Positions 174-11,038 are shown, numbered from the stretch's first letter. The stretch is 31,523 bases of DNA from Candidatus Woesearchaeota archaeon (GCA_018302765.1 JAGVZG010000026.1:1-31523), one strand, 5' to 3'. Numbers and translations: made by a program. Notes: generated from the sequence alone by a model not told the origin.

Positions 174-2354
174 ATGCCAAAAAAAGAGGATGTTAAAGAT
201 ATTCTGGAAAAGTATCGTTCTAAAATCGAAGAATATGTAGATGTAGAAACAGAAGGGCAAATTGAATCTGAATCAACAAAAGCTTTTTCATCAGAATACA
301 TAAAATTCAGAGAGGAAATATTATCAAAAAATATATCTAATTACGAAAAATGGTGTAATATTTCTGAAACCATAGTAAAACTAAAGCCGTCTGATAAAAA
401 CCTTCCAAGAATAGAAGAAGCAATAAGTACAGCCCATCTCAATATAACACCAACAGGAGCTGCTAGTTTTGCAGCATTATCAAGTTTATTGATTATTTTT
501 CTAGGAATTTTCATATCTGCAATATTATTTCTGTTAATAGGAGAAATTCCAATATTTACTCTTTTAATGTTTCTAATTATTGGATTGGTTGCTTTGATGT
601 ATTTTAATAAAATGCCACTGTTTATAGCAACAAAATGGCGTCTAAAAGCCAGCAACCAAATGGTTCTAGCTATATTGTATGTAGTAATTTATATGAGGCA
701 TACTTCAAATCTAGAACATGCAGTAAAATTTGCAGCACAGCATATTGATGCGCCACTATCTTTAGACTTAAGAAAAGTATTTTGGGATTTAGAAACAGGA
801 AAATTCTCAACAATAAAAGAATCTCTAGACAATTATCTAGAATCTTGGCGTCATTATAATTTAGAGTTTGTTACAGCATTTCATCTAATTGAATCATCTT
901 TGTATGAACCAACACAATCAAGAAGAAGTGATCTTCTGGATAAAGCTCTCAACGTAATTCTAGAAGGAACTTATGAGAAAATGCTGCATTATGCACAAGA
1001 TGTAAAAGGGCCAATAACAACGCTGCACATGCTTGGAGTAATTCTTCCTATATTAGGTTTAGTAGTATTTCCTTTAGTAGGTTCATTTTTGCAAGGACTT
1101 GTAAAATGGTATCACTTAGCATTTCTTTATAATATAATACTTCCAGTTATGGTATTTTCTCTGGGTATGAATATACTTTCAAAAAGACCAACAGGGTATG
1201 GGCAGTCAAAAGTAGCAGAAAGAGTATACCAGAAGGGATTTGATCCTTTTTGGTTGTGTTTTTTCATAGCTACATTACTTATTGTAATTGGATTCCTGCC
1301 AATAATGTTTAAATGGGTCACTCCGCCAACATTCTTAGAGAACCAAAAATGCGCTGTAGGAGATATAGACCTAGGTGACTCACTAGGCTGTTTTTTTGGC
1401 TACTTTGAATTTGGAGGCAAAGCATTCGGCCCTTTTGGTATTGGTGCATTAATTCTTAGTTTTTTTATTCCAGCAGGAGTTGCAATAGGTTTTGGATACT
1501 ACAATAAATTAAAAAGTAAAAAAGTCATAGAGTTAAGAAATGAGACAAAGACATTGGAAAGTGAGTTTGCAAGTACACTTTTTCAGTTAGGAAATAGAAT
1601 TGGTGATGGAATTCCAACAGAGCTTGCATTTAATAAAGTAGCCCAGACAATGGAAGGAACACCATCAGGCAATTTTTTCAGACTGGTTGATGCAAACATT
1701 AGACAGCTGGGAATGGGAATAGAAGAGGCAATATTTAATGAAAAAAATGGAGCGTTGCTTGCTTATCCCTCGCCATTGATAGAAAGCTCAATGGAAGTGC
1801 TCTTAGAAAGCTCAAAGAAAGGACCGCAAATAGTTTCCCAGTCACTTATAAGTATTTCAAATTACGTAGACAAAATACACAAGGTAACAGAGCGTCTTAA
1901 GGACTTGCTTGCAGAAGTAATTTCTTCCATGAAGTCTCAGATATCTTTTCTTACCCCAGCAATAGCAGGAATAGTTGTAGGAATATCAGCAATGATTGTC
2001 AATATTATAGTCGCTTTAAATGTAAAAATATCAAGCTTTTCTCTGGAAGCAACAGGAGAAACAGCAGGTGGTGCTACTGGTTTGACTACAATAGTTGATT
2101 TATTTAAATTAGAAGGAATAATACCTGGTTATTTTTTTCAAATAGTTGTAGGAGTTTACGTTGTACAGTTAGCTTATATATTAACAATTATGCAAAATGG
2201 CATTGAAAATGGTTCAGACAAAATAAACGAACAGCACTTGCTAGGTAAAAACCTAGTAATAAGTTTTCTTCTTTATGCAATAATTGCAACAATAGTTACA
2301 TTGCTGTTTACTTCAATGGCGCAGGGTCTTCTTTCAAAAGAGTTAACAGGCTAA
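174..2354 (+). CDS. Type II secretion system F-family / TadB-TadC (ArlJ/PilC-like) pilus assembly membrane platform protein, apparently two fused T2SSF modules
   Basis: 726 aa polytopic protein with two soluble-domain plus TM-bundle repeats (GPITTLHMLGVILPILGLVVFPLV; MKSQISFLTPAIAGIVVGI); lies directly upstream of a prepilin cluster. Confidence 0.8.
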   Translation: MPKKEDVKDILEKYRSKIEEYVDVETEGQIESESTKAFSSEYIKFREEILSKNISNYEKWCNISETIVKLKPSDKNLPRIEEAISTAHLNITPTGAASFAALSSLLIIFLGIFISAILFLLIGEIPIFTLLMFLIIGLVALMYFNKMPLFIATKWRLKASNQMVLAILYVVIYMRHTSNLEHAVKFAAQHIDAPLSLDLRKVFWDLETGKFSTIKESLDNYLESWRHYNLEFVTAFHLIESSLYEPTQSRRSDLLDKALNVILEGTYEKMLHYAQDVKGPITTLHMLGVILPILGLVVFPLVGSFLQGLVKWYHLAFLYNIILPVMVFSLGMNILSKRPTGYGQSKVAERVYQKGFDPFWLCFFIATLLIVIGFLPIMFKWVTPPTFLENQKCAVGDIDLGDSLGCFFGYFEFGGKAFGPFGIGALILSFFIPAGVAIGFGYYNKLKSKKVIELRNETKTLESEFASTLFQLGNRIGDGIPTELAFNKVAQTMEGTPSGNFFRLVDANIRQLGMGIEEAIFNEKNGALLAYPSPLIESSMEVLLESSKKGPQIVSQSLISISNYVDKIHKVTERLKDLLAEVISSMKSQISFLTPAIAGIVVGISAMIVNIIVALNVKISSFSLEATGETAGGATGLTTIVDLFKLEGIIPGYFFQIVVGVYVVQLAYILTIMQNGIENGSDKINEQHLLGKNLVISFLLYAIIATIVTLLFTSMAQGLLSKELTG

Positions 2355-2359
2355 AAAGG

Positions 2360-2367
2360 TTTATAAA
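2360..2367 (+). promoter_or_regulatory. Putative archaeal TATA box (TTTATAAA) preceded by purine-rich BRE-like AAAAAGG, for the pilin cluster
   Basis: Ends 22 nt before the ATG at 2390, the spacing expected for a leaderless transcript. Confidence 0.5.
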
Positions 2368-2389
2368 CAAAGTTTATCATTTAAGAAGT

Positions 2390-2521
2390 ATGTCTAAAAA
2401 AGGTGAAAGCAGAACTACACTATACGTAATATTTATCCTGATAGCAGCATTATTATTGCTGTTTTTATTGTACAAAATTATACAGCTTAAAGTACTTGGA
2501 GGAATATTCAAAATAATATGA
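2390..2521 (+). CDS. Mini-pilin (43 aa) with class III signal peptide; not in the ORF track
   Basis: Hand translation MSKKG|ESRTTLYVIFILIAALLLLFLLYKIIQLKVLGGIFKII*; TGA overlaps the next ATG (ATGA, 2518-2521). Confidence 0.75.
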   Translation: MSKKGESRTTLYVIFILIAALLLLFLLYKIIQLKVLGGIFKII

Positions 2522-3723
2522 AGAAAGGAATTGAAGCTATAACTGTTGTTATAGTTCTAATAGTTTTTTTGCTTACCTTAGCTATATATATTTTATTTAA
2601 TAAAGCCTATGGAGGAACTTTAGTATCTAGCACAAATCAAGCAGCAATAAATTTATGGGTTAAGGAAAGGTCAGCATCTTTTGGAACTGACAAAATTGTT
2701 GCAGATTATCCGCCTGTTCCAGAACTTGAAGATCCATTGGAAATTAAATCAAGAGATGATTTATTATGGAAAGGAGGCAAACCTCCCAAAGCGTATAAAG
2801 AAATAGGAGATAGTATGATTGATTGTTGGAAATCATTTGATAGAGGAAAAACAGATTTCATTAATACAGTAGAAAGAACACCATTTTGTTTTAAGTGTAG
2901 AGCAATATCATTTTCAAATGAAATAAAAAAAGAAAAAGTTCAGATGCTTGGTTTTAATAGATATTTAAATGAGCAAAAGGTTGGTAGTAAATCAACGCCA
3001 ACATACATGCAGTACTTTGCTAATGATAATTTCTATAACTTATCAGAAGAGGAAATAGGAGAGGACAAGACCATAATTGAAAGAGATTTATACGTATACT
3101 TATTTGCAGCTTCAGGAAGAGGGATTGCTAATATAATGTCTAATTTGCTTGGAGCTGGTGATATAGTACCAGAAGAAGTGAGCAAGGCAAAGACATCAAC
3201 ACTAGCAACCACAACAACAATCAGTGAACGGGCTGAAATTTCAGCAGCAACATCAGGAGTTCTGGCTGCAACTAAGGCAGGCACTTATACTTTGAATACT
3301 TTACAGAAAGCAATGCAGCAAAAAGCAGCTGAATCAGCAGCAGAGACTGCAGCAAGAGGAGCAGTGTCAGCTGAAGCTGCAACAATAACTGAAGCAAAAC
3401 TTATTACAGTAGGAGAATATACTGCAGGAAGAACTGCTGCACAAGCAGGAGAAAAAGTTGTTGTCTCTGTAGCAACAAAAACAGTTGAAGAAAAAGTTGC
3501 AAAAACAGTAGCAAATAAAGTAGCAAGTAGTGCTCTAAGAAGATTGCTTGCAGGTGCCGGTTCGAAAGTTATTGGTGGTCCTATTGGTTGGTATTTAATT
3601 GTAGGAACTGCTGCTTATGGAACTTACAATATAGTTTTCGGAGAGAAGCCATTTTCAGCCAATGTAATGCTTGTTGATCCAGTAGAAGCAAATGCCTTAT
3701 GCAATGCCAAGGCAAAAGAATAA
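2518..3723 (+). CDS. Class III signal peptide (pilin-like) protein, 401 aa, with Cys-containing domain, Ala-rich region and C-terminal Gly-rich hydrophobic segment
   Basis: MKKG|IEAITVVIVLIVFLLTLAIYILF N-terminus; DCW and CFKC motifs; AGAGSKVIGGPIGWYLIVGTAAYG near the C-terminus. Confidence 0.75.
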   Translation: MKKGIEAITVVIVLIVFLLTLAIYILFNKAYGGTLVSSTNQAAINLWVKERSASFGTDKIVADYPPVPELEDPLEIKSRDDLLWKGGKPPKAYKEIGDSMIDCWKSFDRGKTDFINTVERTPFCFKCRAISFSNEIKKEKVQMLGFNRYLNEQKVGSKSTPTYMQYFANDNFYNLSEEEIGEDKTIIERDLYVYLFAASGRGIANIMSNLLGAGDIVPEEVSKAKTSTLATTTTISERAEISAATSGVLAATKAGTYTLNTLQKAMQQKAAESAAETAARGAVSAEAATITEAKLITVGEYTAGRTAAQAGEKVVVSVATKTVEEKVAKTVANKVASSALRRLLAGAGSKVIGGPIGWYLIVGTAAYGTYNIVFGEKPFSANVMLVDPVEANALCNAKAKE

Positions 3724-3725
3724 AT

Positions 3726-3887
3726 ATGAAAAATTCAAATAAGAAAGCAGATTTTGAAATTGAAACAGTTCTAAAGATATTATTAGCGCTTATAATTTTA
3801 CTAGTTATTATTGGATTAATATTTTTATTAAAAGGAAAATCAATTAATATCTTAGAGCAAATAAAAGAGATATTAAGATTAACTTAA
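3726..3887 (+). CDS. Mini-pilin (53 aa) with class III signal peptide; start moved from 3699 to 3726
   Basis: MKNSNKKA|DFEIETVLKILLALIILLVIIGLIFLL with Glu at +5; ATG lies 2 nt after the upstream stop. Confidence 0.8.
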   Translation: MKNSNKKADFEIETVLKILLALIILLVIIGLIFLLKGKSINILEQIKEILRLT

Positions 3888-3890
3888 AAA

Positions 3891-5063
3891 ATGGCAACAG
3901 AATTTCATTTAAGGCCTGTAGTTGTAATAGCTATAGGTTTAATAGTTGTAATTTTTATTTTAGGTTCTATTATTTATGGAGGAGCAACGCCTTTAATAAA
4001 ATCAATAGCAGATCTTTTTCCTTCAAATCAAACAGAGACAAACATTGCAGAAGTCAGCGATAACATCCCATTTTACAATGAATTTATAAAAAATTACAAA
4101 GAATGCAAATTATCTCCTTCTGTAGATTGTTTTTGTTCATTGACAAATCCAACAGTGCCTGAAAATTACATAATTCAAGTAAAAAACAATCCAAGTTCAA
4201 AAACAACATCTATACTTCTGCATTCAAATGCAAGACTAAACAAATGCAATGCAATTTCACCAACAAAGGAATTAAAAGACATACAAACAATTCAAACAGA
4301 TATAACAGACGATTTATTATATTTCAAGAATTATGTTTTTTATCCAACAATAGCACAGGAGCAGACTAAAGAAGTAGAAGTTCCGTCATCCAGTGGAATA
4401 TTGGCTGGTGTTTACAGAAGAGCATACTTAAAAGAAGAGCCAAGTAAAATACAGCAGGCACAATTAGGAAAATTAAAGAAAGAAGAATTTACACAAGCAG
4501 ATAATTTGTTTTTATACAATCTAAATTTATGTTCCTCAAAAGATGTCTCAGGCAATGATGAAATTTCATTTACAAAAGGGATTATTTATAAGTTTAGCAA
4601 TGAAGAAACAACGCTTATTTCAGGATTTACTGGTTTAAAAAGATGCGCAACAATTAAGGATGCATTGCCAGCAGACGAACAGTTTATCAAATTGATTTCA
4701 ACAATAAATGAATGTAAGCAAGGGCCGTGCGCTTTTTCCATAATATCTGCTGAAGGAATTGAATCAGTTATTCCAAAAGATTATGAAATTATAATTGAAG
4801 GTCAAAAGTTAACATTGCAATATAAGGAAGAAAAAGTAAAGACAGCAGAAATAAAAAAAGAAATGTGTTTATTTTCAGACTTTAGAGAAATAACACTAGA
4901 GAATTCAAAGCCATTAACAAAATTAATTTTCAATAATTATATTGGGGCTGAATTTTATGCATTTGATAACAAGATATGTGTTCTTCCTTATACGCCTGAA
5001 ATAAAAAAACAAAAAGATTTACTGCTAGAAAAACTCAAAACAAGGTCTTTAATCCCAACGTAA
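3891..5063 (+). CDS. Membrane-anchored Cys-rich extracellular protein (390 aa) in the pilin cluster; no clear class III cleavage motif
   Basis: N-terminal TM helix VVVIAIGLIVVIFILGSIIY; multiple Cys pairs; probable internal duplication. Confidence 0.7.
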   Translation: MATEFHLRPVVVIAIGLIVVIFILGSIIYGGATPLIKSIADLFPSNQTETNIAEVSDNIPFYNEFIKNYKECKLSPSVDCFCSLTNPTVPENYIIQVKNNPSSKTTSILLHSNARLNKCNAISPTKELKDIQTIQTDITDDLLYFKNYVFYPTIAQEQTKEVEVPSSSGILAGVYRRAYLKEEPSKIQQAQLGKLKKEEFTQADNLFLYNLNLCSSKDVSGNDEISFTKGIIYKFSNEETTLISGFTGLKRCATIKDALPADEQFIKLISTINECKQGPCAFSIISAEGIESVIPKDYEIIIEGQKLTLQYKEEKVKTAEIKKEMCLFSDFREITLENSKPLTKLIFNNYIGAEFYAFDNKICVLPYTPEIKKQKDLLLEKLKTRSLIPT

Positions 5064-5071
5064 CCAAAAGC

Positions 5072-5079
5072 TTTATATA
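5072..5079 (+). promoter_or_regulatory. Putative internal TATA box (TTTATATA) upstream of the 5119 pilin
   Basis: AAAAGC-TTTATATA-G in a 55-nt intergenic gap; SD-like AGGTGTGAT at 5108-5116. Confidence 0.45.
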
Positions 5080-5118
5080 GAAACATCATAATTTATGAAT
5101 TATTAAAAGGTGTGATAG

Positions 5119-5553
5119 ATGTCAAATAGAAAAGCACAAGGTATGCCGATGAATGTTATAATCATTGCAATAATTGTGCTAGTTGTTCTTATTATTTTAA
5201 TTGCATTCTTTGCTGGTGGCTTTAGTAGTGTTGTAGGCAAAGTAAGGGATTTATTCACAGGAACTACTTCAGGTCAGTCAAGAGATGTAGTAATACAAAC
5301 ATGTCAAAATCTCTGTGATACAGCCAAAGTGTTGCCTGAATCATCCCAAAAAATCTCAGGTTATTGCAAGCAGTCTTTTGTAGTAGACATGGATAGTAAT
5401 CCAACAACTAAACCAGAAAGAGTCGTTTGTGGTTCTCCTGCATCAGCTATTACAGCAGAATTTAGTAAATATAAAGAAGATCCAAAAATAGATAACACAG
5501 GTAAGAATAACTTAGGCGTAGACTGTCTAGAAATAAAGTGCGAAAATGTCTAA
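5119..5553 (+). CDS. Type IV pilin-like protein (144 aa), candidate major pilin
   Basis: MSNRKA|QGMPMNVIIIAIIVLVVLIILIAFFAGG class III signal; small Cys-rich head with five Cys; own putative promoter and SD. Confidence 0.85.
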   Translation: MSNRKAQGMPMNVIIIAIIVLVVLIILIAFFAGGFSSVVGKVRDLFTGTTSGQSRDVVIQTCQNLCDTAKVLPESSQKISGYCKQSFVVDMDSNPTTKPERVVCGSPASAITAEFSKYKEDPKIDNTGKNNLGVDCLEIKCENV

Positions 5554-5722
5554 AAAAGGTGTTTCTTTATCTCTAGAAACTATTGTTGTTACAATTCTAA
5601 TTCTTGTTGCTCTTATTCTAATAATTATTTTTGTATTAAAATATGGCGGTCAGTTAAGTTCTAGTATTGGACAGCAAGCAAAGACTAGTGCTTCTATGCT
5701 TCCAAATATAACAACACCATAA
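5546..5722 (+). CDS. Mini-pilin (58 aa) with class III signal peptide; not in the ORF track
   Basis: Hand translation MSKKG|VSLSLETIVVTILILVALILIIIFVLKYGGQLSSSIGQQAKTSASMLPNITTP*; overlaps the upstream stop by 8 nt. Confidence 0.8.
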   Translation: MSKKGVSLSLETIVVTILILVALILIIIFVLKYGGQLSSSIGQQAKTSASMLPNITTP

Positions 5723-5756
5723 CAAATAAATACCAATCAATTCTTTAAATTAAAAT

Positions 5757-7418
5757 ATGAAAAATAAAAGGGGTACAGAGGATATATCACTAAATATTTT
5801 CTTTGGTGTAATTGCTGCATTGCTGATTGTTGGGGCTATTGTCTTAGCAGCTAACAAATTAACTATAAAAACTGGAAAATTTGAATGCCAAAATATAAAT
5901 TTCTGGGATGGTTTTAATGGTTTAAAGGAGAAATTAAAGCAAGTAGACAGTGGAAAACATACAGAATTTATGTTTTATAACAAAGATTGTTATTTAGTCA
6001 GTTTCAGCTTTCTGCAAGCACCACAATTAAATAAAATAGAATATCCACAGCCTTTGCCAAGGGAACCGTTGCTTTGTCTTTGTAAGATAGAAGAAAGCAA
6101 ATGCAAGCCATACGATTGCTACAAATTTGAAAATTATGAAAAAATAAATCAGGAACAATTTTTAACAGAAGACTATGACAATTACCTGTTCCTAGAATTT
6201 ATCAAAGAAGGTAAAACTTTATACATAAAACCTGTTGGATATAAGAAACCAATTGAACCAGCATCGTACACAAAGTCAGAAATATCAGAAAAAACGGATC
6301 CAAAAGGGCTGATTAAAGAATTAAAAATTACGTTCAATGTGAAAGATATAAAATCATTTAATCCTTTTGTAGATGTTAAGGAACCAGGGCTGCTATTGCC
6401 AGCAGGAATTCCAAATATGGAAGGATTTACTCAATTATTTGATATAAATATATCTCATCCTCCACTGTATGGGCAATCTATTGAAGATTATATAGTAAAC
6501 CCAAGGCCAATAGATATAAATGTGGTAAAATCAGCTTACATTTTAATATCTTTGCCTAAAAATAAATATGAAATATTAACAGAACCACAGAAGCAGAATA
6601 TAAATTTATATTTTAAATTAGGTCAAGAATGGAAAAAATCAAAAATGCTGTGTCAGGAAGCAGAAAATGAAGTCTTATGTGAAGCAAATATAGAAGGATT
6701 TTCACAAAATTTTGCTATTTCTATTGAAGAGCAAATAGAAATCACAACAGGCGAATGTGCTGGCTTCGCACCAGGTTTAATTCTAATACAAAAAGACAGT
6801 AAAATCTCATGTTCAGATAAGGTATGTTGTGCTCATCCAGAAGCTGTAGCTCAGATCGAGAAAACAAGAAGTTTAATTGAAAAATCAGATGACTATTTAG
6901 TAATTTTTGACGCTGCAAGAACACTAGAATCTCAACGTCTGGCATTTTTAGACTATCTTTCCGGAGGTTATGAAGCAGCAGGTCCAGAAGGGATAAATAA
7001 ATACAGTTTAGCAGCTGAAGTTACTAAGGCATTCAAAACTGAGTTCGGAAACATTAAGACTACAAAGCAGCAAAAAATTGACTTTGCTTTAAAATGGTTA
7101 TCAGAAAATAAGCCAGAATTACTAGTAATAATAAATGATCTGTCAAAATATATTAAAAATAGTAACCACTACAATGGTCGTGCAATAGATATTAGATTAA
7201 AAGCAATGCCAAGTGATTACAGTAAAGCAAGCAATGATGATGTTATAAGATTACGTAACTTAATGTGTAAATTAGGGTGGGCAAATTATGGCGGTGAATG
7301 GTGGCATTATGAATATAAAACAAGTGATTATGAAACAGCTAAGAAAAATAACCAATGTTTCTGGTCAAAGGATAAATATGCTGATGCTGCAGCAACCGTA
7401 CAACCAAATTATGCATAA
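5757..7418 (+). CDS. Pilin-like protein with class III signal peptide, Cys-rich domain, PGF-pre-PGF-like domain and C-terminal M15 (VanX/VanY-like) Zn peptidase
   Basis: MKNKRG|TE followed by a TM helix; LYFKLGQEW...EANIEGFSQNFAI; DAARTLESQ, SNHYNGRAID and GEWWHYEY motifs. Confidence 0.85.
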   Translation: MKNKRGTEDISLNIFFGVIAALLIVGAIVLAANKLTIKTGKFECQNINFWDGFNGLKEKLKQVDSGKHTEFMFYNKDCYLVSFSFLQAPQLNKIEYPQPLPREPLLCLCKIEESKCKPYDCYKFENYEKINQEQFLTEDYDNYLFLEFIKEGKTLYIKPVGYKKPIEPASYTKSEISEKTDPKGLIKELKITFNVKDIKSFNPFVDVKEPGLLLPAGIPNMEGFTQLFDINISHPPLYGQSIEDYIVNPRPIDINVVKSAYILISLPKNKYEILTEPQKQNINLYFKLGQEWKKSKMLCQEAENEVLCEANIEGFSQNFAISIEEQIEITTGECAGFAPGLILIQKDSKISCSDKVCCAHPEAVAQIEKTRSLIEKSDDYLVIFDAARTLESQRLAFLDYLSGGYEAAGPEGINKYSLAAEVTKAFKTEFGNIKTTKQQKIDFALKWLSENKPELLVIINDLSKYIKNSNHYNGRAIDIRLKAMPSDYSKASNDDVIRLRNLMCKLGWANYGGEWWHYEYKTSDYETAKKNNQCFWSKDKYADAAATVQPNYA

Positions 7419-7420
7419 AT

Positions 7421-7801
7421 ATGAAAAAAGGTAAAATACAAATAGGACTGGAATTATTTATACACTTGGCCTTATTATTAATAGTTATAGCTGCATTTTT
7501 TTCTGTTACTGGATTAATAAAAAATAATATTTCTCATGATTTGCGTGCAGAAGCAAAAGACTATGTTCTTACACATGATGCAATAATTTCTTATTCAGAC
7601 AATTTAAATTATGTCTATAATCCAAGGGAAAATGTAACTATTATATTTGATGAAGCTAACTGTTTGGTTGAAGCAAGGCACAAATCAGAATTAACACAGC
7701 CAGTAAGGTTTTTTTGTGGCACAGATAAGTCTGCTTTTACAAAAGCTGAAAGAATCAACAATAAAATTATTATAAAAAATGAGCAAAAAAGGGATATTTA
7801 A
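7421..7801 (+). CDS. Minor pilin-like protein (126 aa), class III signal peptide
   Basis: MKKG|KIQIGLELFIHLALLLIVIAAFFSV; Cys pair. Confidence 0.7.
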   Translation: MKKGKIQIGLELFIHLALLLIVIAAFFSVTGLIKNNISHDLRAEAKDYVLTHDAIISYSDNLNYVYNPRENVTIIFDEANCLVEARHKSELTQPVRFFCGTDKSAFTKAERINNKIIIKNEQKRDI

Positions 7802-8258
7802 TATTGTAGAATATATTGTTTATTTAATATTTATTATAATTGGGGCTTCATTTATAGCAATTGTGGCATTTGGATATTTAAATGAAAAAATAGACACAAC
7901 AAATTTAGAAGCTTTTATACTGACTAAAAAATTAATATATTCAGAATCCTGTCTTGCATTTAAAGATAATTTAGGTTTGCATAAAGGTATTATAGATATA
8001 CAAAAAGTAGACACAAGCAAGATAATAAGTTGTTTTACAAAGCCAAACTTAGGTTACATTGTAAGTATTAGTAATTTGGATGGTAAAATAATAAAATCAG
8101 CATCAAATTTAAATCTAAAGCAACAATTAGATCTTCCTGTTTGTAAAACAATAAAACAATATAAATGCCATAGCAGAACGGATATAATATTATATAAAGA
8201 AGGAGAAGAAACTAAAACAGGTTTTATAAATATAGAGGTGATTAATCTTGTGGGATAA
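7779..8258 (+). CDS. Minor pilin-like protein (159 aa), class III signal peptide
   Basis: MSKKG|IFNIVEYIVYLIFIIIGASFIAIVAFG; four Cys. Confidence 0.75.
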   Translation: MSKKGIFNIVEYIVYLIFIIIGASFIAIVAFGYLNEKIDTTNLEAFILTKKLIYSESCLAFKDNLGLHKGIIDIQKVDTSKIISCFTKPNLGYIVSISNLDGKIIKSASNLNLKQQLDLPVCKTIKQYKCHSRTDIILYKEGEETKTGFINIEVINLVG

Positions 8259-8814
8259 AAAAGGAGATTATGGCTTTCCTATTTATTTCGTGCCTGTCTT
8301 GGCTATTTTTGTAATAGTTTTAATTATATTTTCAGCATTGTTTTTTGCATCTAATATTATTAAAAGTCCGAACTTAATAATAAAATCTGTAAAATATCAG
8401 GACAGTTCAAAAGTTTTAACAATATTAAAGTCTGTAGTGCCAGTAGAAAATAAAAATATCACAATTGCAGAATTAATATCATTAGCTTTTGAAGATTCTA
8501 AATATGAAGGAAAATTAGGTGAGGAAATAAAAACATTTTTATCCAAATTACCCAAGCCACAAAGAAAAGAAGATCTTACTGAATCTAAATTATTAATTAT
8601 AGAAGCAACAAAGTCAAGTTTGCAGAAGGCAAATTGGATTTTAGAAATAGAGTCAAATGGCAGAACTATAGCTTTTGGAGAAAAATCCACATTTGGAATG
8701 AAATATTTCCTGCAAAATGCAATAATTCCTTTATCATTCAATAACATAGCGAAAATTAAATTATACCTAGATTGTTTTTCATGTTCAGAGGAGGGAATAA
8801 ATGCAATTGCATAA
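8248..8814 (+). CDS. Minor pilin-like protein (188 aa), class III signal peptide, TTG start
   Basis: MWDKKG|DYGFPIYFVPVLAIFVIVLIIFSALFF; SD GAGGTGA at 8235-8241. Confidence 0.75.
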   Translation: MWDKKGDYGFPIYFVPVLAIFVIVLIIFSALFFASNIIKSPNLIIKSVKYQDSSKVLTILKSVVPVENKNITIAELISLAFEDSKYEGKLGEEIKTFLSKLPKPQRKEDLTESKLLIIEATKSSLQKANWILEIESNGRTIAFGEKSTFGMKYFLQNAIIPLSFNNIAKIKLYLDCFSCSEEGINAIA

Positions 8815-9688
8815 AATAAACAAAAAAGGCCAGATATTTCTATTTGGTTATGTGATAATTTACACCATTATACTTATCTCATTATTTTTTACAACAATAT
8901 CAGCAGCCAATAAAAAAGAAGATATTATTGGTCTAAGGGCAATAAATTTAATAAAAGCAAACCAGGAATCTGATAATATAGAATTGTATTTAGACATGGC
9001 AGCAAAATATTCTTATGAGAATTCACTGAATAAATTGGCTGAAAATGGTGGTTATTCAGAGGAAAATAGATGTGAAAAAACACAACCAACAATTATAGAT
9101 AGAGAAGAATATGTAATACTAAATACTTGCCAAGTTCTGGATTCAAATGGAGAATTCCAAAGCCAGTTAAAAAAAGAAATAAAATATTACTTAAATATTT
9201 ATGAAAGCAGTTATACAAAAACAAGTTTTAAAGACGATTTCAATATAGAAAAAGAATATCCTCGTTTGGAAGGAGTACCAGAAAAAATCAAAGATGACTA
9301 CAATTATATTTATACCCAAGCTATTAAAAATACAAAAATTGAAAAAATAGAACAAGGCAGTAAAAATTTAATTATAGCATTTTCAGATGTTATTCTACCT
9401 ATAGAAAATGACGAGATTTCATACTTAAATTTAAAGCCAGAAATTTCAATAGACAAACCAGATTTTACAATTTATAAAGAAATACATCTGGCAATAAACA
9501 ATTATTGTATAAAAAAGGATAAAAAAACTTGTGAAGAAGCACTAAAAATTAAATTCAAGGATATAAATATTTATACAGAAGGAATACTATTCAAAATAAT
9601 AATACCTTATAATAATTATAAAATTAAATTGGCATTTTATAATGATAAGATGATTCCACTTATGCAAGATTTGACTAATACCGTTTAA
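8801..9688 (+). CDS. Pilin-like protein (295 aa), class III signal peptide
   Basis: MQLHKINKKG|QIFLFGYVIIYTIILISLFF; SD-like GAGGAGG at 8788-8794; two Cys pairs. Confidence 0.75.
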   Translation: MQLHKINKKGQIFLFGYVIIYTIILISLFFTTISAANKKEDIIGLRAINLIKANQESDNIELYLDMAAKYSYENSLNKLAENGGYSEENRCEKTQPTIIDREEYVILNTCQVLDSNGEFQSQLKKEIKYYLNIYESSYTKTSFKDDFNIEKEYPRLEGVPEKIKDDYNYIYTQAIKNTKIEKIEQGSKNLIIAFSDVILPIENDEISYLNLKPEISIDKPDFTIYKEIHLAINNYCIKKDKKTCEEALKIKFKDINIYTEGILFKIIIPYNNYKIKLAFYNDKMIPLMQDLTNTV

Positions 9689-10084: not shown

Positions 10085-11038
10085 ATGATTCTTGGTTACG
10101 AAACAATAATAAGTAAAATAGTTGATGCAACAGAGATTTCTAGGCAAGACATAGAGTCTAAAATTGAACAAAAACTTAAAGATCTGCAGGATTTAATATC
10201 TAGAGAAGGCGCAGCACATATAATAGCAAATGAATTAAATGTAAAACTATTTGATGCAACAAACAGGTCACTAAAAATAGCTCAGATACAACCAGGACTG
10301 AATTCTGTTAACATAATATCAAAAGTTATTAATGTAAATGAAGTAAGAACATTCCAAAAAGAAAATAGGCAGGGAAGAATAGGATCTTTATTAGTGGGAG
10401 ATGAAACTGGCACAATTAGATTAGTGATTTGGGATGAAAAACTTATAGATTTATTAAAAGAAATTAAACAAGAGGACATTTTAAAAATCAACAACGCTTA
10501 TTCAAAACAAAACAATAACTTTAGAGAATTGCATTTAGGAAGTAAATCTCAAATAATAATAAATCCAGAAAATGAATCAATAGCATCAGTAAAATTAACT
10601 AACACATCAAATAGAAAGCAGATTAAAGATCTAGTTGCAAGTGATTTTGTAGAAGTTTTTGGTACAATAGTGCAAGTATTTGAGCCAAAATATTATAATT
10701 CCTGCTCTGTATGTAATAAAAAAACAATACAGCAAGGAGATTTATTTAATTGTCCTGAACATGGTTCAGTTCCTCCAAAACAAACACCAATACTAAACAT
10801 ATTCTTTGATGACGGCACTGGTAATATAAGAGCAGTTTTATTTAGGGACCAGGCAGCTAAATTAATATTAAATAAAGAGGGTTTTGAAGACATAAAAAAA
10901 GAAGTATTAGGCAAACAATTAATACTAAAGGGAAAAGTAAATAATAACGAAATGTTTAACAGGATAGAATTGGTAGTTAATAATATAGAAGAGCCAAAAC
11001 CAGAAGATATGATTGCTGAAATGCAAAATGATGTTTAA
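10085..11038 (+). CDS. rpa: Replication protein A (OB-fold ssDNA-binding protein with Zn finger)
   Basis: OB motif VGDETGTIRLVIWD; CSVC...CPEH Zn finger; second OB motif DDGTGNIRAVLF. Confidence 0.85.
   Translation: MILGYETIISKIVDATEISRQDIESKIEQKLKDLQDLISREGAAHIIANELNVKLFDATNRSLKIAQIQPGLNSVNIISKVINVNEVRTFQKENRQGRIGSLLVGDETGTIRLVIWDEKLIDLLKEIKQEDILKINNAYSKQNNNFRELHLGSKSQIIINPENESIASVKLTNTSNRKQIKDLVASDFVEVFGTIVQVFEPKYYNSCSVCNKKTIQQGDLFNCPEHGSVPPKQTPILNIFFDDGTGNIRAVLFRDQAAKLILNKEGFEDIKKEVLGKQLILKGKVNNNEMFNRIELVVNNIEEPKPEDMIAEMQNDV

Follow-up and report, generated by a model that had tools for sequence, protein, structure and literature searches.

A candidate type IV filament locus of a Candidatus Woesearchaeota archaeon with pilin-like carriers of exchangeable peptidoglycan hydrolase modules

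Why would an archaeon encode candidate murein hydrolase modules joined to pilin-like proteins? The question is raised by a locus at positions 174 to 9688 of a 31,523-nt stretch of DNA from a Candidatus Woesearchaeota archaeon (GCA_018302765.1, JAGVZG010000026.1:1-31523). This stretch, referred to here as the window, makes up all of contig C12 in a genome (G000) of 1.02 Mb in 28 contigs, with about 30% G+C, that is rated 100% complete. Its relatives fall in Candidatus Woesearchaeota / Nanoarchaeia and come from groundwater. DNA near-identical to the locus occurs in groundwater and soil metagenomes, and a search of sequencing data sets listed no RNA data set that contains it. The locus is read here as the distal portion of a type IV filament (T4F) operon that is conserved among relatives and whose modular pilins most likely act on bacterial walls at or near the archaeal surface, a reading given a probability of about 0.6.

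The plus strand of the window carries the gene for a 726-amino-acid (aa) membrane protein (174-2354), followed by 11 co-oriented genes that extend to 9688. The junctions of the 11 downstream genes run from -23 to +55 nt, with overlap at five of them. The lists of open reading frames (ORFs) for 174-9688 bear out the original prediction of a platform-like gene followed by 11 packed or overlapping ORFs. Ten of the 11 array proteins start with a short basic leader that ends in glycine or alanine ([KR][GA]) and continues into about 20 hydrophobic residues; the ten N-termini first quoted for the locus are all found as written in the ORF translations. A strict, home-made class III pattern, applied to the genome's 3673 ORFs with a length of 40 aa or more, matches 47 of them, and 8 of those 47 lie within the 7.3 kb from 2390 to 9688, where 0.34 would be expected (Poisson P about 3e-9). 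Class III N-termini are therefore clustered here far above chance. The leader motif is kept in orthologue alignments (consensus MNKKG), and N-terminal helices are predicted at residues 9-35 of the 553-aa array protein and 11-48 of the 144-aa array protein. Cleavage of these leaders by a prepilin peptidase would be expected.

The question is posed most directly by the C-terminal part of the 553-aa protein (5757-7418, plus strand), a modular prepilin-like protein with the leader MKNKRG/TE (a slash marks the end of the leader here and below). Its AlphaFold2 (AF2) model, at a pLDDT of 90.8, begins with the 27-residue helix at 9-35 and continues with an alpha/beta domain (47-161), a beta-sandwich (165-330) and an M15 module (335-553), the domains being joined by short links at high confidence. 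The M15-type motifs reported at the outset (S-x-H-x-x-G-x-A-x-D and E-W-W-H) are present at their place in the protein. In profile searches the window's own copy stays below threshold, with 18 bits in Pfam against cut-offs of 27 and 25 and a match to NCBIfam PRK10178 at 5.8e-7 that is far below its cut-off. Homologues of the module do pass the Pfam M15 cut-off (P0006 at 27.4, P0007 at 28.3, P0009 at 31.7 and P0023 at 46.9); P0023 matches VanY as well as M15, and more distant homologues also match VanY. An exhaustive search with residues 340-553 recovered 45 cluster representatives at E<=1e-3 among 1.84 billion. In these homologues the module is always C-terminal in a longer protein, and almost no names or taxa were found for the clusters.

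Five residues of the module (R388, H471, D478, E514 and H517) are invariant in 18/18 homologues that bear the module and align with the zinc and catalytic motifs of VanX. Foldseek searches with the 553-aa model placed VanXYc and VanY in nine of the first 11 rows, with LdcB in 16th and VanX in 40th place and with probabilities for the M15 matches of 0.96-1.00 and E values of about 5e-3 to 3e-2. With VIA-align, the 12 best rows are all M15 entries (Z 7.5-8.9, 124-145 residues aligned), 11 of which span about residues 335-539 and one of which starts from 219; the next rows match another domain at Z ~6. The 553-aa protein ends in a true, if divergent, M15 module (VanX/VanY/LdcB-like), so the peptidoglycan-type peptidase of the original prediction is real, and conserved residues, modelled fold and homologues together make it look catalytically intact. 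For the stretch at residues ~180-325, a PGF-pre-PGF-like domain was considered and rejected; no Pfam match was found at E<=1, and the model there is a generic beta-sandwich with matches at Z ~6.

Orthologues of the 553-type protein end at ~330 aa or carry SLT, M23 or Amidase_2 domains instead of M15. A Pfam tally of 71 large array proteins at E<=1e-3, a search in which the window's own M15 copy falls below the cut-off, gives SLT in 6, Amidase_2 in 2, M23 in 2 and M15 in 2. At least one murein hydrolase module is found in 8 of 16 complete arrays from the same order and in 2 partial arrays. M15, SLT, M23 and Amidase_2 modules map to three scaffolds, namely the 553-type, the 295-type (here 8801-9688, ...NKKG/QI..., a second carrier scaffold with no extra module in this genome) and the 390-type (here 3891-5063, MATEF...). 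Even within one genus (G000, G001 and G002), neither the kind of module nor its carrier is constant. In G002 the 553-type bears M15 and the 295-type bears Amidase_2 (1e-24), and G001 has a 328-aa 553-type protein with no module and M15 on its 295-type. In other genera, the 553-type carries SLT with M23 (G015), SLT (G006 and G005), SLT with Amidase_2 (G030), or M23 with a weak phage-lysozyme match (G275). SLT is found on the 295-type in G037, where M23 sits on another array protein, and on a 579-aa array protein in G039. Metagenomic homologues extend the pattern, with the M15 module on a 390-type scaffold in P0003 and after an SLT domain in P0004 and P0010 (1047 aa in P0010). The synteny comparison proposed with the original prediction thus came out as predicted: cargo modules are exchanged from genome to genome and from scaffold to scaffold.

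The cargo that can be assigned to a family consists mostly of peptidoglycan hydrolases. The other domains in the 71 scanned proteins are single cases of PEGA, Laminin_G_3 and an integrase (Phage_integrase). The Laminin_G_3 (concanavalin-like lectin) domain is in a 517-aa protein encoded directly after the platform gene in G018 (L032:2323-3876), where weak Sialidase and CarboxypepD_reg-like matches overlap it. In the 731-aa metagenomic homologue P0007, the M15 module follows a GDSL/SGNH esterase domain. GDSL esterases include peptidoglycan O-acetylesterases, and this may be another wall-directed pairing.

The array as a whole is a fixed genomic arrangement. It is syntenic from the platform gene to the gene for an RPA-like protein in 16 genomes of the same order, with the shared order of mini-pilins, 401-type, 390-type, 144-type, 58-type, 553-type, followed by a set of four small coupled genes of which the 295-type is the last. 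The protein sequences diverge fast (25-70% identity), and no array protein matches a Pfam or NCBIfam family above cut-off, except for the cargo modules in relatives. In 16 loci from other orders, no array follows directly 3' of the platform gene on the same strand, the rest of those genomes not having been searched; the same is true of one locus listed as same order (L061, in G228), for which the search was likewise confined to the position directly after the platform gene. Pairs of unrelated small genes on the array strand were seen in or beside some arrays (L029:5578-6589, L031:5837-6450, and L042:2233-2878 and 5072-5657). The arrays tolerate insertions.

A filament machine also needs its motor and its peptidase, and neither an ATPase nor a prepilin peptidase is encoded in the window, as originally noted; both are found elsewhere in the genome. 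A Peptidase_A24 gene lies at C28:27032-27388 (60 bits, above cut-off). The genome has two canonical T2SSE+T2SSF loci, on contigs C5 and C13; a 1284-aa frame at the extreme end of contig C23 (14696-18547) gives a third match to T2SSE, a weak one. The absence of a linked ATPase had been named as a ground for abandoning the prediction; in 6/6 relatives fetched with flanks, a homologue of the C23 ATPase lies directly upstream of the platform gene. An orthologue (L027:5648-7939) matches Pfam T2SSE at 4e-18, and the best solved relatives in the PDB are A. fulgidus GspE (2e-25), CpaF (8e-25) and FlaI (3e-14). The extra length of the frame in this genome comes from an intein (Intein_splicing 1.7e-27, LAGLIDADG_3) that splits the ATPase core near residue 517. 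The ATPase is likewise long in G001 (~1270 aa), and it is ~765 aa in the five other relatives. The same set of neighbours stands upstream of the ATPase at the C23 end and in 6/6 relatives (L023-L028). Given these shared neighbours and the adjacency of ATPase and platform genes in relatives, the end of C23 almost certainly precedes the start of C12.

The upstream set comprises three paralogous ~190-aa membrane proteins and two small genes in divergent orientation (132 and 180 aa), conserved directly upstream of the ATPase and located here at C23:11965-14635. The 132- and 180-aa genes show weak matches to coiled-coil-type Pfam families, and no Pfam family was found for the three ~190-aa proteins and the two small genes. 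These may be further machine parts.

The 726-aa protein is polytopic and is a candidate platform, a divergent member of the ArlJ/PilC/TadC-like kind, on the basis of its context and its neighbours in the ESM Atlas. Its nearest Atlas clusters are archaeal and named for a GspF domain (feature score 0.96-0.98), and further clusters nearby have T2SSF on ~20% of their members at a TM of 0.77. Sequence searches are far less favorable to the TadB/C-like platform first proposed. The protein has no match in Pfam or NCBIfam, and Pfam T2SSF is found in 2/22 of its orthologues with a best E of 0.01. Alignment by hhalign to the genome's own two canonical T2SSF pairs was negative, as was a search with its profile against PDB sequences, and BLASTP of its two halves for an internal repeat was negative or marginal. 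What stands of that proposal comes from the Atlas neighbours and the gene context. The protein is 47-81% identical across the order.

The genome has no match to the Mur ligase family (Mur_ligase_M). A murein or pseudomurein wall of the archaeon's own is therefore unlikely, and the substrate of the hydrolase modules is most likely bacterial murein.

These observations suggest a mechanism. The machine would be encoded in the order T2SSE-type ATPase (on C23, with the intein), 726-aa platform-like protein and 11 pilin-like genes. A PibD-type A24 peptidase encoded elsewhere would remove the short basic leaders, and the ATPase and platform would lift the hydrophobic N-terminal helices from the membrane into a surface filament or a short pseudopilus. 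The filament body may consist of one or more of the small conserved subunits, either the 144-aa or the 43-58-aa proteins. The larger proteins would be modular pilins in which a pilin-like N-terminal scaffold shows a C-terminal module outside the cell. The display site would most plausibly be the filament tip, as argued for bacterial modular pilins (PMC8179133), or a short pseudopilus. The module in this archaeon would be a zinc M15 peptidase of VanX/VanY/LdcB type that, by analogy with its relatives, acts on peptidoglycan stem peptides, and relatives would present lytic transglycosylase, M23 endopeptidase or N-acetylmuramoyl-L-alanine amidase modules in the same slots. The role would be attachment to, access to, or feeding on bacteria, with a living bacterium, as opposed to wall debris, as the presumed target. 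Of the type IV filament locus originally proposed, the ATPase, the A24 peptidase and the class III array stand as found; that the proteins enter a filament and that the target is bacterial is what we infer from them.

Several observations weigh against this reading. VanY and LdcB are carboxypeptidases. The structures nearest to the M15 module are carboxypeptidases or dipeptidases that trim stem peptides, not wall-lytic endopeptidases, so the M15 copy alone need not breach a wall, and the original wording that it would cut a bacterial wall was overstated. Half of the complete arrays have no recognizable hydrolase. No pilin fold was matched for residues 1-165 of the 553-aa protein, where searches were filled by the other two domains, or for the 144-aa model, for which Foldseek against the PDB gave nothing below an E of 3.5. 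The platform is not recognizable as T2SSF by sequence. C23 and C12 share no sequence overlap, and alignment to the spacers of relatives was uninformative, so their join is one of synteny only. Lastly, nearly all sampled genomes have the ATPase and platform; a profile search found the 726-aa protein in 299/301 good-quality genomes of a draw from the phylum, all from the same class or closer (297/299 when the unpublished genomes G265 and G266 are left out of the tally). Such wide occurrence of the ATPase and platform, set beside the optional hydrolases, suggests a general housekeeping machine at the cell surface to which wall-active modules have been attached, the hydrolases being optional add-ons rather than its purpose.

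The boldest form of the proposal is that the conserved ATPase-platform machine of nearly all sampled genomes of the class builds a contact organelle in Woesearchaeales, whose tip pilins would breach the wall of bacteria, as hosts or as prey, with interchangeable murein hydrolases; it is offered as a tentative possibility.

A rather unlikely alternative is a bindosome-like scavenging system at the cell surface. The T4F machinery would anchor enzymes there by class III signals, as with the class III signal peptide (SPIII) sugar-binding proteins of Sulfolobales, and free peptidoglycan debris would be digested to amino sugars and amino acids with neither living bacteria nor a long filament involved. 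Archaeal SPIII proteins that are not pilins and are handled by T4F machinery are known (PMC13705601, functionalised T4F), and the resemblance of the M15 module to carboxypeptidases that trim stem peptides suits such a role. So do the optional occurrence of the hydrolase set across genomes and the small genome, which implies reliance on scavenged building blocks. An anchor, however, would require less than what is seen, as the carriers keep a pilin-like scaffold within a translationally coupled array that includes four small minor-pilin-like genes. The recurrence of wall-opening enzymes (SLT, M23 and amidase) fits intact sacculi as well as debris.

It is improbable that the locus is instead an exporter resembling a type II secretion system (T2SS), with a short pseudopilus that expels soluble enzymes and hydrolase proteins that are set free, perhaps by a second cleavage, to act as diffusible antibacterial or lytic agents. 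The T2SS and type IV pili have ATPase, platform, peptidase and pseudopilins in common, and secreted archaeal peptidoglycan hydrolases that kill bacteria have been documented (PMC12352652). However, T2SS substrates are not pilin-like, and the enzymes here are fused to a class III N-terminus. There is also no evident cleavage site or linker protease, and the modeled domains are joined by short links. The idea that the hydrolases open the archaeon's own wall for filament passage, comparable to the dedicated SLT enzymes found in bacterial type IV and type III secretion, flagellar and some pilus loci, is nearly excluded because a genome rated 100% complete with no Mur ligase family member is not expected to make murein or pseudomurein, and the enzymes vary in kind and are absent from half the arrays.

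The small members of the array, all on the plus strand, provide the candidates for the filament body. The best-conserved protein of the array is the 144-aa prepilin-like protein (5119-5553, NRKA/QGMPMN...), a candidate structural subunit with six invariant cysteines (alignment A10); its AF2 model shows the N-terminal helix and a small head at a pLDDT of 68.8. The alternative candidate is a headless (Flp/Epd-like) mini prepilin-like protein of 58 aa (5546-5722, MSKKG/VSLSLE...), with a family identity of 39-71%. Two further mini prepilin-like proteins lie at the start of the array. One is 43 aa (2390-2521, MSKKG/ES...), for which relatives have orthologues of 36-50 aa in the corresponding position, and the other is 53 aa (3726-3887, NKKA/DFEIE...), or 62 aa if read from an upstream ATG at 3699, with orthologues of 50-55 aa.

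The four coupled genes at the end of the array begin with that of a 126-aa prepilin-like protein (7421-7801, MKKG/KI...), whose leader is conserved in the alignment. Its gene is separated by 2 nt from the 553-aa gene upstream and overlaps the 159-aa gene downstream by 23 nt. Orthologue alignments also cover the 159-aa (7779-8258, MSKKG/IF...) and 188-aa (8248-8814, MWDKKG/DY...) prepilin-like proteins that follow, the former with four invariant cysteines, and the 295-aa carrier scaffold that closes the set. A complex prediction with the soluble parts of the 126-, 159-, 188- and 295-aa proteins, the 295-aa protein being the partner, gave no verdict, as a control with one chain replaced scored too close.

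The 390-aa protein is the one array member that has an N-terminal hydrophobic helix with no [KR][GA] leader, and it could be a leaderless pilin-like or a signal-anchored scaffold. The protein and its orthologues start with M-[A/T/G/V]-x-[E/D], and the hydrophobic helix follows directly. Judged by its sequence, this N-terminus resembles the start of an already mature pilin and would need no leader peptidase. The orthologue in G010 reaches 1031 aa.

The 401-aa prepilin-like protein (2518-3723, MKKG/IE...) was the second large member singled out at the outset, for an Ala/Gly-rich segment thought to be a membrane-engaging cargo. The Ala-rich stretch is located where it was reported, as a low-complexity insert rich in Ala, Thr, Glu and Lys at about residues 215-370. 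An alignment of 15 orthologues (A3) shows a conserved leader and Cys-containing domain, the insert of highly variable length, and then a conserved strand with a terminal Cys; the insert is absent from the orthologues in G002, G010, G030 and G020. The family is found in Nanobdellota only, and no known fold was matched (Atlas pLDDT 0.55). The segment is a variable insert, and a membrane role is not supported.

Other observations concern the surroundings of the locus and the rest of the genome. The fixed neighbor 3' of the array is an RPA-like single-stranded DNA-binding protein of 317 aa (10085-11038; OB folds, Rep_fac-A_C) with 37-79% identity across the order. At the other end, positions 1-90 of the window are by eye far richer in G+C than the rest of the contig (about 29%), and roughly the same stretch aligns with nothing upstream of the platform genes of relatives; it may be an assembly artifact of the contig end, or it may mark the border of a segment inserted between the ATPase gene and the platform gene. 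A scan with bacterial-type promoter and terminator models, which do not apply to archaea, gave signals at the level of shuffled sequence only. Elsewhere in the genome, an 842-aa frame (C27:87602-90127) has a penicillin-binding-protein Transpeptidase domain (44.7 bits), despite the absence of Mur ligases, and a class III-like N-terminus (…RRHKKG/ISLAGALVF…). A giant SLT protein of 2262 aa with a Sec-like N-terminus (C26:13778-20563) matches the published family of large extracellular murein-like transglycosylases, and a 381-aa SLT protein (C16:20510-21652) is encoded just 3' of a class III-like 179-aa gene.

This kind of system is known in part, from modular pilins and from murein hydrolases of Woesearchaeota, and the combination was not found described; a full-text literature search found no paper that reports murein hydrolases fused to pilins within a conserved T4F operon of archaea. 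In bacteria, the existence of modular pilins is established (Raynaud et al. 2021, PMC8179133), in a study that does not mention peptidoglycan hydrolase modules. Like the proteins described here, those of Streptococcus sanguinis (PilB-vWA and PilC-lectin) combine a class III N-terminus and pilin-like scaffold with a C-terminal module, the modules varying among strains, and the lectin modules of bacterial modular pilins include Laminin_G_3 (PF13385), the family found in the array of G018 (PMC8179133). The present case differs in that the host is an archaeon, for which the IPR012902 motif of bacteria is not valid, that peptidoglycan hydrolases serve as the modules, with the same module moving across three scaffolds, and that incorporation into a filament is the presumed rather than the established state.

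Archaeal T4F systems, such as the Epd pili of Methanococcus, the Aap and Ups pili and the bindosome, have in common with this locus an ATPase, a platform, a class III peptidase and many SPIII proteins (PMC13705601). The headless mini-pilins here recall the Epd/Tad type, and the idea of functionalised T4F fits as well (PMC13705601). A 2026 survey of archaeal T4F reported that DPANN archaea (Nanobdellati) rarely have an ordered T4F locus, and it does not mention peptidoglycan (PMC13705601). The locus described here, in contrast, is ordered and syntenic across its order, with a single 726-aa platform gene that T2SSF models miss. The platform and pilins of this order-wide locus have diverged too far for existing models to detect, and a current survey method misses it for that reason.

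Murein transglycosylases of Woesearchaeota and Pacearchaeota have already been interpreted as directed against bacteria (2021, PMC8204110; Vigneron et al. 2022, PMC9723730). The lineages, the inference of a bacterial wall and, in several relatives' arrays, the SLT domain are the same as here. The published enzymes, however, are large extracellular proteins or CAZy hits with neither a pilin N-terminus nor a pilus operon, whereas the array proteins are 300-700 aa and occupy fixed slots. For the bacteria-killing peptidoglycan hydrolases of a haloarchaeon, the signal peptides reported, where known, are all of Sec or Tat type (PMC12352652). With family M15 (VanX, VanY, VanXY and LdcB) the module has in common the fold, the zinc ligands H-x6-D...H, a catalytic Glu in E-x-x-H and the transition-state Arg; it differs from known members in being rare and divergent, in having a Cys-rich N-terminal extension and in always being C-terminal in larger proteins. 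The Tad-like Kil apparatus of Myxococcus xanthus, used in contact-dependent prey killing (PMC8460266), is a T4F machine that acts on the envelope of another bacterium, as are the type IV pili of Bdellovibrio-type predators and of episymbionts of the candidate phyla radiation (PMC5430801, PMC11623550), and the ATPase here is close to the Tad ATPase CpaF. Hydrolases have not been reported as pilin fusions in those systems, and the analogy with this locus is a functional one only.

The bacterial dependence of the abundant groundwater Woesearchaeota and Pacearchaeota has so far been argued from isolated enzyme hits. Four families of wall-cutting enzymes fused to pilin-like carriers at fixed operon slots turn that argument into a concrete and testable apparatus, and the bond specificity of the modules could indicate the type of bacterial wall that is targeted. 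To our knowledge, all cultivated DPANN archaea live on archaeal hosts. If the contact organelle suggested above is real, it would be a pilus-delivered wall breacher and would provide direct genomic evidence that many such DPANN archaea live on bacteria, not archaea.

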